A stretch of DNA of 63,917 bases, filler included, from Rhabdomonas costata (lineage: Eukaryota), in NCBI GenBank assembly GCA_019059605.1. It is 35 parts of 35 records of this genome, joined end to end, with 100 filler letters (N's around TTAATTAATTAA, not from the genome) between each part and the next. Parts side by side here need not be neighbours in the genome. Positions count along the whole stretch, not along the records: positions 31,076 to 32,843 come from JAHMHO010009978.1; positions 32,944 to 34,671 come from JAHMHO010009979.1; 33 more parts are not named here. The stretch is one strand, 5' to 3'. Every line of letters starts with the position of its first letter. The first letter of the stretch is position 1. Of this stretch, positions 31,076 through 33,009 are shown in pieces. The notes below the pieces were generated by a model. It was not told the origin of the DNA. It saw only the letters and a program-made list of their open reading frames with translations, and did no database searches. A program made the translations under genes and the position numbers.

Positions 31076-31710
31076 AGCCCAGAACCATAAGAGATAGCAA
31101 CAACGAGGTGAAGAACCTTTGACTTGGATTCGTGCTCGTGGCGACCCCTGGCAGTCACAGAAAGCTTTTCAGATTTTTTGAGCCACGCCTTTGATTTCGT
31201 GACACATCCTGATTCTTTTGGCCTCGTTTTGTGCACAAAGCTCACGCAATCCAGGTAAAGACCGACGTTTTCCCAAAACGAAGCTGGGAGATGCTTGTGC
31301 TTTTGGCACCAAGCGAGGCGCTTTTTTCGGTCTTGAGCGGATAGAATTCCTTTCCTGCGCAAATTGCTCCACTGCAGACCACCTCGATGCATTTCCCGAT
31401 ATAGGGTGGACAGCGAGACGCATGACAGCAGGCCGCATTCTTTCGCCAGTTGGCGAACCGAAAAATTTACATTCATTTTCCTCATTTTCCCCACTGCTCG
31501 GATGAGCAGGCGCCTCTCTCGAGCCCCAAGCTTACGGTGGCGACCAGCTGGCTTCGGGAAGCTGGTAACAGGTGATTTTTGCAAAAGCTTCTTTTTAATG
31601 AGGGCAACGGAGCCGAGAGAGATGCCACACTTGGCGGAGATGGTTCTGTACGAAGTACCGCTCAATATAAGGAAAGCAGCCAACGCCCGACGGAAAGAGG
31701 TAATCACCAT
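31076..31710 (-). mobile_element. IS630/Tc1-mariner-like DDE transposase, N-terminal part (runs off contig start)
   Basis: Intronless ORF with HTH (SYRTISAKCGISLGSV), GRxxKL linker (GRHRKLGARERRLLIR), second HTH (SVRQLAKECG...VSLSTLYR), RRKGILSxxDRKKRLAWC...FW and the first catalytic Asp in LYLDCVSF. Start at ATG 31710 is a best guess. Confidence 0.88.
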
Positions 31711-31875
31711 AGATGACGAAAAATGCTCAGGAAAGGCCCTGTAAGAAAACCTTAGAAAAAGCGGTAATGAAGGCAAAAAACCACACAAAATATGCATAAT
31801 GAGAAAAATACAGTCATCACTCAACCCTAATTTTCTGCAAAATCACGTTTTCTTATGACAAGAATTCGATTTGTC

Positions 31876-32074
31876 ACGATGCCCAAACGATGCCCATGAC
31901 AATTTCCACGATGCACATAACGATGCCCATTGTTTTTGACGATGCCCCAACTACGTAAAAGGCTATAAACATATAGCCCTTTTATACAATGCTGGGCATC
32001 GTGAAAAGTGCGGGCAACGTGGTGGGCATCGCTCAAAACAGGCGGGGCATCGTGTAAATTGTGTGGGGCATCGT
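31876..32074. repeat. Imperfect palindrome: five ACGATGCCC-like copies, central hairpin, five inverted copies
   Basis: Forward copies at 31876, 31887, 31908, 31920, 31939; stem TAAAAGGCTATA (31956-31967), loop AACA, TATAGCCCTTTTA (31972-31984); inverted GGGCATCGT-like copies at 31994, 32012, 32024, 32045, 32066. Confidence 0.93.
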
Positions 32075-32410
32075 GCGAAAAACGTTCATTAATGTAGTTT
32101 CCACTGGTCTGTAGACGTTCTGCACAGTGCGTTACCTGGTAGGATGAAAACAACAGTCATTATGCTAAGACAATTGGCCAGATATAAGCCTGTCACGGAT
32201 CGCTGCCTGTATATGCTGTATTCATCTCTGCACAAAAAACACGTGCGCACTCCTGTTTTGATTTTGAAACCATTCAAAAATTCAGTGCACGACAACAAAA
32301 AGCTGCTGAGGAGTTTTCCCGGCGTTCACAGATCAGCACAGCAACAAGGCTACGATATCGACCACTCACGAAAAAATATTTACAATACAACGCAACCCGT
32401 CATAACTCCT

Positions 32411-32842
32411 TCAGGCAAAGGGGTAAGAACCGTGCAAAAGCTCCGCAAAGCAGCGAGGGCATGGAATTGCCTCTTGGTGACAATGGACGGGAATAGAAAC
32501 ATTAAACACAAAAACCCGAAAGCGGTTCCGCATCATTTCGTTTTCGACACCATCCATCACACCATTTTGCACATAAACTGGCACACACTTCCCAGTACAA
32601 AAAACGGGGAGATTATTCGATGCTTCCAGGCAAAAGTCTTCATTGCAGAAGGTGCGGGGCTGTGAAAAATTTACAGTCGCCCCATCCAAAAGCAGCAGCA
32701 TCTGGCTCCACGTCAGAGGCTTTCCATCAACCTGGTTAAACCTGAAATCATCCAATAGGATGACTTCCTTGTTGCGAACAGCAGCAAAGCTAAAATTGTT
32801 CATTGCAGGATTCAAGAGACAGCGGAAAATCTTTTCAAGGGG
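32411..32842 (-). CDS. Superfamily-3 helicase C-terminal half (Rep/NS1-type), N-terminus missing
   Basis: Intronless PLEKIFRCLLNPAMNNFSFAAVRNKEVILLDDFR (Walker B)...LLLLDGATVNFSQPRT (B')...PVFCTG (motif C region)...MMRNRFRVFVF (Arg finger)...CPRCFAELL*. Walker A would lie just beyond the contig end. Confidence 0.78.
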   Translation of the reverse strand, partial: PLEKIFRCLLNPAMNNFSFAAVRNKEVILLDDFRFNQVDGKPLTWSQMLLLLDGATVNFSQPRTFCNEDFCLEASNNLPVFCTGKCVPVYVQNGVMDGVENEMMRNRFRVFVFNVSIPVHCHQEAIPCPRCFAELLHGSYPFA

Positions 32843-33009
32843 TNNNNNNNNNNNNNNNNNNNNNNNNNNNNNNNNNNNNNNNNNNNNTTAATTAATTAAN
32901 NNNNNNNNNNNNNNNNNNNNNNNNNNNNNNNNNNNNNNNNNNNTTTTTGGAAATGTGTTCCCACCGTTCAATGATTTAAAATGTCCAGCTGAAAGGCTAA
33001 AAAATAATC

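Follow-up and report, generated by a model that had tools for sequence, protein, structure and literature searches.

Within a 63,917-base stretch of DNA from Rhabdomonas costata (assembly GCA_019059605.1; hereafter the window), a single contig of 1,768 bp (positions 31076-32843) carries parts of two genes, one for a replication protein (Rep) that combines an HUH endonuclease with a superfamily 3 (SF3) helicase, and one for a Tc1-family transposase (Tnp). We assign a probability of roughly 60% to the view that this contig derives from a small eukaryotic mobile replicon with two genes, namely a circle without a capsid gene that is replicated by Rep and harbors a Tc1 transposase as its means of integration. 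The two genes, together with a palindrome situated between them, are co-inherited in three lineages that diverged deeply.

The window itself strings together ~35 unrelated contigs, each of ~1.73 kb (1,720-1,768 bp), by means of linkers of the form N44-TTAATTAATTAA-N44, and adjacent window sequence is therefore uninformative with respect to the two-gene locus, which occupies exactly one contig. The minus strand of this contig contains the C-terminal 143 codons of Rep, a spacer and the N-terminal 249 codons of the transposase (Table 1). A preliminary description of the contig, made from the sequence alone, had reported two co-oriented minus-strand open reading frames (ORFs), both cut by the contig ends and separated by ~700 bp. 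Each of these points was confirmed, the separation being 700 bp when counted to the ATG at 31710 and 586 bp from ORF to ORF. No second copy of the Rep or transposase gene was found in the rest of the window, nor did any part of the window match Rfam.

Table 1. Features of the two-gene contig, in window coordinates
Feature	Position	Strand	Description
Rep gene, 3' part (ORF A)	32411..32842	-	143 codons, TGA stop at 32411-32413; SF3 ATPase from just before Walker B to the C-terminus
Iteron palindrome between the genes	31860..32095	.	ACGATGCCC-type 9-mers in two inverted arrays; supported by single-stranded DNA folding and word counts
Central hairpin at the palindrome centre	31956..31984	-	AAAAGGGCTATA-TGTT-TATAGCCTTTT; z -3.8
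Tc1-family transposase gene, 5' part (ORF B)	31078..31824	-	249 open codons; in-frame ATGs at 31797 and 31710

ORF A runs open from the contig end to its stop codon and displays VILLDDF (Walker B), LLLLDG, PVFCTGK at the position of motif C, a conserved Arg and a terminal IPCPRCF, in agreement with the SF3 motifs and terminal CPRC described earlier. The HUH domain and Walker A of the window Rep lie past the contig end. A HMMER scan of 1.84 billion representatives returned 374 relatives of ORF A at E<=1e-3 and 112 at E<=1e-10, mostly 440-660 aa in length and matched in their C-terminal part; the window fragment is 57-63% identical to the longer or full-length relatives P0003-P0005. The HUH endonuclease, which the preliminary description could not see, is present in the full-length relatives. 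Alignments of 25 and 62 sequences revealed near-invariant HUH motifs I (vYLiTYSqA), II (HYHxAxKL) and III (YxYVxKxD), with residues H56, H58, Y103 and K106 (P0004 numbering) nearly invariant. A linker of ~150 residues separates these motifs from Walker A (GxxNCGKSF). Walker B reads LNDFRW in the family and LLDDFRF in the window subfamily, while motif C reads PIFATSK and PVFCTGK, respectively; an invariant Arg and a C-terminal PCxxCF extend across the family in both alignments.

Comparison of the 62-sequence Rep profile with the PDB gave 20 matches at E<=1, 19 of them viral Rep or E1 proteins. The HUH part of the profile matched 9pqq, a Replication-associated protein (3.1e-5), and SIRV1 ORF119 (4.7e-4), while the ATPase part matched Rep40 of adeno-associated virus (AAV), the best helicase match (3.9e-4), AAV Rep68 (~2e-3) and Rep of porcine circovirus 2 (PCV2; 0.01-0.02). 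The alignment with AAV Rep40 spans Walker A through the Arg finger and places PIFATSK on AAV PVIVTSN. The window fragment alone gave no useful match in the PDB. Sub-threshold Pfam matches among 25 Rep members were to REP_ORF2-G2P (14), PPV_E1_C (5), Parvo_NS1 (4) and Gemini_AL1 (4). Neighbors in a protein-language-model Atlas comprised a 'Replication-associated protein' cluster (Eukaryota, most commonly Cnidaria) and Parvo_NS1 clusters, which we took as a lead only. Taken together, the sequence comparisons identify ORF A as the SF3 half of a member of an HUH-SF3 Rep family that we regard as divergent and uncurated, because no member reaches a Pfam threshold, be it for the four families above or for RNA_helicase. 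Relatives of Rep were not found in IMG/VR viral contigs, prokaryotic genome contigs, plasmids or phages. One Rep-family representative, P0081 (1,007 aa), is joined in its gene model, at least, to two SAM domains (SAM_2, 8e-22; SAM_1, 3.5e-16), which points to a eukaryotic genome in which either a copy is embedded in a host gene or gene prediction merged two neighbors.

ORF B, which reads into the opposite contig end, encodes two helix-turn-helix (HTH) motifs, a GRHR variant of the GRPR linker and a first catalytic Asp within LYLDCVSF; the second Asp and the Glu lie past the contig end. HTH_Tnp_Tc3_2 scored 30.1 bits on the window protein against a cut-off of 31.5, and HTH_23 matched as well. 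The window transposase shares 71% identity with P0166 and 36-39% with two full-length DD34E transposases, P0167 and L005 Tnp, both of which exceed the DDE_3 cut-off of 28.6 bits (37.7 and 52.5 bits, respectively). The spacing between the second Asp and the Glu was 34 residues in 5 of 6 sequences tested, the sixth having missed the motif pattern. Within the transposase alignment the G-R of the linker is invariant (GRPR in 3 of 5 sequences, GRHR in the window and GRPV in L002), and the first Asp stands in (F/L)Y(L/F)D(C/G)VSF, followed by QDNDP and NPIE. An Atlas model of the L005 transposase gave TM scores of 0.69-0.79 against Tc1, Tcb1 and Tcb2 clusters. ORF B represents the 5' end of a Tc1-family transposase gene, in line with the Tc1/IS630 architecture given in the preliminary description.

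The LYLDCVSF context of the first Asp had been singled out as atypical. It is indeed present in ORF B, but it is simply the signature of the whole subfamily, chromosomal members included. In the wider transposase subfamily (P0188, P0194, P0221, P0227, P0246 and others) the corresponding context is FY(L/F)DG(V/T)SF. Members of this wider subfamily occur in many copies, as many as 39 sequences in a 90% cluster, on contigs of 0.26-4.1 Mb, and the subfamily hence doubles as an ordinary chromosomal Tc1-like family. Viral contigs yielded no transposase relative. A metagenome-assembled genome of Bacteroidota includes a 1,828-bp contig (L008) with a solo wider-family transposase, 47% identical to P0167, without Rep; three direct ACAAAATGAT repeats lie upstream of the gene (positions 1-300), and the contig is probably a mis-binned eukaryotic Tc1-like element.

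We next asked whether this linkage recurs in other sequences. When metagenomes were scanned with an alignment of close Rep relatives, seven loci (L001-L007) were obtained, three of which (L001, L004 and L007) could not be scored for linkage because their contigs stop 273, 660 and 573 bp after Rep. In 4/4 informative loci (L002, L003, L005 and L006), Rep is followed 370-500 bp downstream by a co-oriented Tc1-like gene, and the order is invariably Rep, palindrome, transposase. These loci come from four different records and represent two lineages besides the window (L002/L003, 99.6% identical; L005/L006, 99.96% identical). Among the three linked lineages, the window contig included, Rep C-termini are 53-63% identical and transposases 37-40% identical. 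Synonymous sites had reached saturation in 8 of the 10 Rep pairs compared (dN 0.25-0.51); the two pairs for which dN/dS was computable gave 0.11 and 0.16.

Comparison of the two phylogenies likewise placed the linked genes in one group in each tree. A quick IQ-TREE analysis of the first 70 of 121 eligible Rep representatives plus 5 locus sequences recovered a 12-row clade, nested in the wider family, that holds the window Rep, L005, L002, L001, L004 and seven database proteins (SH-aLRT 99). The transposase tree was built from 69 of 105 clusters (>=320 aa) plus WIN, L002, P0166 and P0167; the three Rep-linked transposases share one 8-row group (SH-aLRT 91). The window contig is nearest to the L005 lineage in the transposase tree, and likewise in the Rep comparison. 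Linkage evidence is confined to the 12-row Rep clade: equal contig sizes, used as a proxy for linkage between wider-family Rep and transposase clusters, were not found besides the 3,984-bp contig of the L005 lineage. Taken together, these findings indicate that Rep and the transposase are very probably part of one element.

The spacer between the two genes belongs to the element as well. The 9-mer ACGATGCCC occurs there in 7 exact copies (4 on the plus strand, 3 on the minus strand) within 199 bp (31876-32074), along with 2 variants read by eye; the whole window contains 9 copies, compared to 0.39 expected from shuffles. These iterons form two inverted arrays that flank an A/T-rich centre with TATAAAAG (minus strand, 31986-31979). 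Folded as single-stranded DNA, 236 nt of the iteron region reached -53.5 kcal/mol (z -6.7), and none of 200 shuffles equalled either this value or that of the central hairpin. The central hairpin may act as a nick site, as an unwinding element or as a TATA element for both directions.

An array of 9-nt words follows Rep in 5/5 lineages. The word differs per lineage and is always ACG-initial (window, ACGATGCCC; L005, ACGGTGCAG; L003, ACGTAGCCC; L004, ACGGTCACA; L007, ACGGTAACA), and within each locus it is confined to the post-Rep spacer. In the window, L005 and L003, forward copies are followed by a 45-50-nt A/T-rich centre with TATA-like words and then by reverse copies. L004 and L007 possess their own iteron arrays after Rep, the L004 array including 9 forward and 3 reverse exact 8-mers, and both contigs stop at the palindrome centre.

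A second structured region lies 95-440 bp 5' of Rep. It comprises, in L003, a 19-bp stem between C and G runs (677-740), and an (A/G)TTGTATT(T/G) box is present in 3/3 lineages that cover the region, namely L003, L001 (40-60) and L005 (86-100). The L001, L002, L005 and L006 contigs begin within or beside this region, which could be another origin or could merely mark where assembly breaks off at a G/C-rich hairpin. Directly past the transposase stop, tandem duplications were observed in L005 (3380-3434 and 3534-3589, period 155 nt) and L003 (327-396 and 397-466, 70 nt), and L005 56-72 holds an inverted partial copy of the post-transposase tandem segment.

We turn now to the size and topology of the unit. 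The first 276 bp of L003 (4,130 bp) recur at its end with 98.2% identity, defining a unit of 3,855 bp. L002 (3,838 bp), which comes from a different assembly, is a circular permutation of this unit minus 22 nt of the upstream hairpin loop. This pattern fits a circle or a head-to-tail array. Other contigs of the L003 lineage measure 4,408-4,573 bp, and those of the L005 lineage 3,599-3,984 bp. Across the families, 0/23 Rep clusters reside on contigs of >=10 kb (maximum 8,620 bp; longest contig 3.5-6.5 kb in 14 of the 23), compared to 31/105 transposase-family clusters on contigs of 10 kb-4.1 Mb, often with 10-39 member sequences (Fisher p = 0.001). The Rep-linked transposase group includes 6 database clusters, and not one of them lies on a large contig. 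A further 22 of the 105 transposase-family clusters are on 3.5-4.8-kb contigs, a bump relative to the 9 at 2.4-3.5 kb and the 3 at 4.8-6 kb. Neither a capsid gene nor a third gene was found in the 3.86-kb unit: 0/7 further ORFs (>=70 aa) matched Pfam, and nearly all of these overlap Rep or the transposase in other frames by coordinates. Taken together, the evidence favors a small circular or tandem unit over a classical transposon, and the element is probably an episomal circle.

The two genes had been called intronless. This holds for the window portions of Rep and the transposase; in some other lineages one or the other gene is interrupted. The L005 Rep has two GT-AG introns (511-586, ~76 nt; 838-~881, ~44 nt), and its spliced frame of 467-474 aa includes all HUH motifs. 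The L002/L003 transposase has one intron of 197 nt (AG|GTAAGA ... CAACAATAG|; L003 3062-3257, L002 2339-2535), the removal of which restores the conserved GIS-x-SSV helix. The presence of GT-AG introns argues that the element is read in a eukaryotic nucleus.

How such an element might operate can be outlined as follows. It would persist as a small circular episome, on which Rep would bind the iterons, nick the origin and drive rolling-circle replication; tandem 9-11-nt repeats are typical of Rep or NS1 binding. Either the centre of the palindrome could serve as the origin, or the conserved TTGTATT box and the hairpin 5' of Rep. In single-stranded form the iteron palindrome would fold to a long hairpin and recreate double-stranded iterons, an arrangement suited to Rep binding and to second-strand priming. 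The transposase would insert the circle into a chromosome, and perhaps excise it too, such that integration would provide a chromosomal refuge for a replicating plasmid or virus-like element. The iterons might be read by Rep or by the transposase, and we entertain both readings. The preliminary description had envisaged one element that combines DDE integration with a viral-type replication protein. The linked and conserved pair stands; integration was not seen, and no chromosomal copy bounded by terminal inverted repeats (TIRs) or TA was found. That the transposase integrates the element is a proposition to which we give nearly even odds.

Meeting at a TATA-like centre, the inverted arrays resemble transposon ends that have been joined within a circle. 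We tentatively propose, with the odds somewhat against us, that the element belongs to a class of eukaryotic plasmid-transposon hybrids not described before, in which circles of ~3.7-3.9 kb without a capsid gene would replicate by means of a CRESS/parvo-type Rep (CRESS, circular Rep-encoding single-stranded) and insert into chromosomes by means of their own Tc1 DD34E transposase, the inverted iteron arrays being transposon ends joined in the circle. The abutted ends and TATA-like centre would then drive transposase expression in the circular form only, reminiscent of bacterial insertion sequence circles, in which expression proceeds from abutted ends. Abutted Tc1-type ends (ACTG-TA-CAGT) were searched for by eye in L003, and none was convincing. 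If such a class exists, its members would be living intermediates that bridge Rep replicons and transposons of the cut-and-paste type, and it may extend to the larger Rep family (374 representatives) and the transposase family.

Several observations weigh against a mobile circular replicon. Both genes are visible in only three lineages. The window Rep fragment alone matches no Pfam family, and every Rep or helicase Pfam score printed for the 25 members is below the gathering cut-off. The central hairpin is clear in just 3 of 5 lineages, being pronounced in L004 (z -6.4) and L007 (z -5.8) and weak or absent in L005 (-0.9) and L003 (+1.3), and no canonical nonanucleotide was recognised in the hairpins. 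A TIR pair around both genes was not found; the iteron region and the hairpin upstream of Rep are the sole strong palindromes, and neither TA duplications nor junctions with host DNA were seen on the contigs examined. The L002/L003 transposase contains an in-frame TGA (L002 2771-2773 = L003 3493-3495) where the window and L005 have a conserved Trp; the ~315-codon frame is otherwise open. This TGA may be a recent nonsense change, or it may reflect recoding (TGA as Trp) or readthrough; recoding is not general, because the window Rep terminates at TGA. Support for circularity comes from a pair of permuted contigs within a single lineage, the terminal redundancy has a 1.8% mismatch that tandem copies would explain just as well as would a variable population of circles, and L005 (3,649 bp) has no end overlap. 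Finally, contigs of ~4 kb interleave with chromosome-scale copies in the wider transposase tree and a solo 1.8-kb transposase member exists (L008). Since the ~4-kb and chromosomal transposase copies are close relatives, unit-sized contigs can also be dispersed genomic repeats collapsed in assembly.

These points lend themselves to other explanations. The one that survives best, which we nonetheless consider unlikely, is a chromosomal composite transposon or tandem array that moves by cut-and-paste only, formed when a Tc1-like element captured Rep or a Rep replicon landed in such an element. The circle-like contigs would then be collapsed or tandem repeats and Rep a passenger or copy-number helper. 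The imperfect terminal redundancy of L003 and the multi-copy transposase relatives on contigs of up to 4.1 Mb, interleaved with those of ~4 kb, are consistent with this explanation, as is a fungal repeat described in the text of Liu et al. 2011 (PMC3198968), in which a Rep-like ORF and transposase ORFs lie between TIRs and the Rep-like gene is present in 42 copies. It accounts poorly, however, for the absence of all 23 Rep clusters and all 6 clusters of the Rep-linked transposase group from contigs of >=10 kb, for the lack of any junction to unrelated DNA or TIR pair around both genes, and for a Rep that has been under long constraint, with dS saturated and every motif kept.

A second explanation, which we regard as improbable, is that the unit belongs to a multipartite CRESS-like or parvo-like virus, as a component or satellite lacking a capsid, or is purely a plasmid, and that its Tc1-derived protein was exapted for a DNA-binding, partition or regulatory role and does not transpose. 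A small Rep-encoding unit with iterons and no capsid would suit this explanation, as would the in-frame TGA of the L002/L003 transposase and the 4.2-6.5-kb contigs of the wider Rep family, which have room for other genes. Nevertheless, retention of D, D and E with 34-residue spacing in 5 of 6 sequences, and of the GRPR linker in most, at 36-45% identity would be unexpected for a mere DNA binder, and no relative of either gene was found in the IMG/VR viral contigs. The last alternative, that the window contig reflects chance adjacency, nested insertion or an assembly or whole-genome amplification (WGA) chimera, or that ORF A is not an SF3 helicase, could draw on a short contig with two truncated ORFs and the lack of a Pfam match for ORF A, but is scarcely credible: order, orientation and palindrome are repeated in 4 other contigs from four records, which excludes chance adjacency, nested insertion and a single-assembly WGA chimera, and the profile of the family to which the 374 relatives belong matches solved SF3 Rep helicases. 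Every refuting condition named in the preliminary description was thus decided in favor of its proposal.

The replicon that we favor shares features with several known systems. Like Rep of CRESS-DNA viruses (PCV2, geminivirus) and related plasmids (pCRESS), its Rep has HUH motifs I-III, with a single YxxK, followed by an SF3 helicase, and its profile matches include PCV2 Rep and, below threshold, Gemini_AL1 and REP_ORF2-G2P. The small, apparently circular form, the iterons beside a hairpin and the splicing of some genes are shared as well. It differs from these replicons in that the second gene encodes a DDE transposase rather than a capsid, all Pfam scores of Rep are sub-threshold, a C-terminal PCxxCF is conserved, the iterons are arranged as a pair of long inverted arrays and a canonical nonanucleotide was not recognised. 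Parvovirus NS1 and AAV Rep68-Rep40 likewise unite HUH and SF3 domains, and the placement of Rep-binding-type repeats inside a long hairpin resembles the AAV inverted terminal repeat; AAV Rep mediates integration. In contrast to parvoviruses and AAV, the palindrome described here is internal, between two genes, rather than a terminal hairpin of a linear genome, and there is no VP gene. The transposase resembles those of the Tc1 family (Tc1, Tc3, Tcb1/2 and Sleeping Beauty) in its bipartite HTH, GRPR linker, DDE_3 domain with DD34E and length of ~350 aa. It differs in accompanying Rep in a 3.7-3.9-kb unit, in the FY(L/F)D(C/G)VSF context of its first Asp and in that no TIRs or TA duplications were found.

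No named pairing of this kind was known to the preliminary description. We found no published pairing of an HUH-SF3 Rep with a Tc1-type transposase in the literature searched, which covered main texts without supplements; the nearest precedent found is a degenerate Rep-like plus transposase repeat of the truffle Tuber melanosporum. As presented in the text of Liu et al. 2011 (PMC3198968), this 'geminivirus-like transposon' is a reconstructed consensus from one species, in which 37-bp TIRs accompany a single Rep-like ORF that is interrupted and a pair of transposase ORFs that are damaged. It resembles our element in uniting Rep-like and transposase ORFs in one repeat, the family of the transposase not being named in that text (PMC3198968), whereas here the genes are intact, the pair is kept across lineages with saturated synonymous sites and the unit is apparently circular. 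Teratorn, as portrayed in the passages of Inoue & Takeda 2023 (PMC10175614) on which we draw, similarly joins a DDE transposase to a viral replication system, and the two are found together in many lineages. Teratorn is, however, a ~180-kb fusion with a double-stranded DNA alloherpesvirus, its transposase is of the piggyBac rather than the Tc1 type, and it is demonstrably integrated with TIRs (PMC10175614). Helitrons and Replitrons are eukaryotic mobile elements that encode an HUH Rep (Craig 2023, PMC10288648). According to the main text of that article, in which the terms 'Tc1' and 'DDE' are absent, Rep itself is the transposase of these elements, Helitrons combine a Y2 Rep with an SF1B helicase, and Replitrons are described without an SF3 helicase (PMC10288648).

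With respect to the remainder of the window, 1 of the 10 longest ORFs of the other contigs matched Pfam (Mito_carr, E 3.5e-34). Since Mito_carr is a eukaryotic family, the source assembly likely holds eukaryotic nuclear DNA. One contig (54878-56605) has a G+C content of 24%, compared to 46-57% in every other window contig. Its open frame of 310 codons matched nothing in Pfam, and the contig may come from an organelle or a foreign source.

Precedents exist for each of the two modules and for the idea of combining them. As far as our searches go, the conserved, intact and apparently circular form of a Rep joined to a Tc1 transposase is undescribed. To our knowledge, eukaryotic Rep replicons integrate only by accident or via Rep itself, and Tc1/mariner elements are regarded as one-gene cut-and-paste transposons. 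If the mobile replicon proposed here is real, it would add a third way of integration, in which a self-replicating episome carries a dedicated DDE integration module. It would also provide a small, single-stranded-DNA-type parallel to Teratorn, in which piggyBac is joined to a herpesvirus; bacterial filamentous phages that carry transposase genes offer a further parallel. The exchange of modules among viruses, plasmids and transposons, as well as the origin of endogenous Rep copies, would become testable, and the element would offer a very compact natural system, made up of two genes and two cis sites, for replication and integration in the nucleus of a eukaryote.

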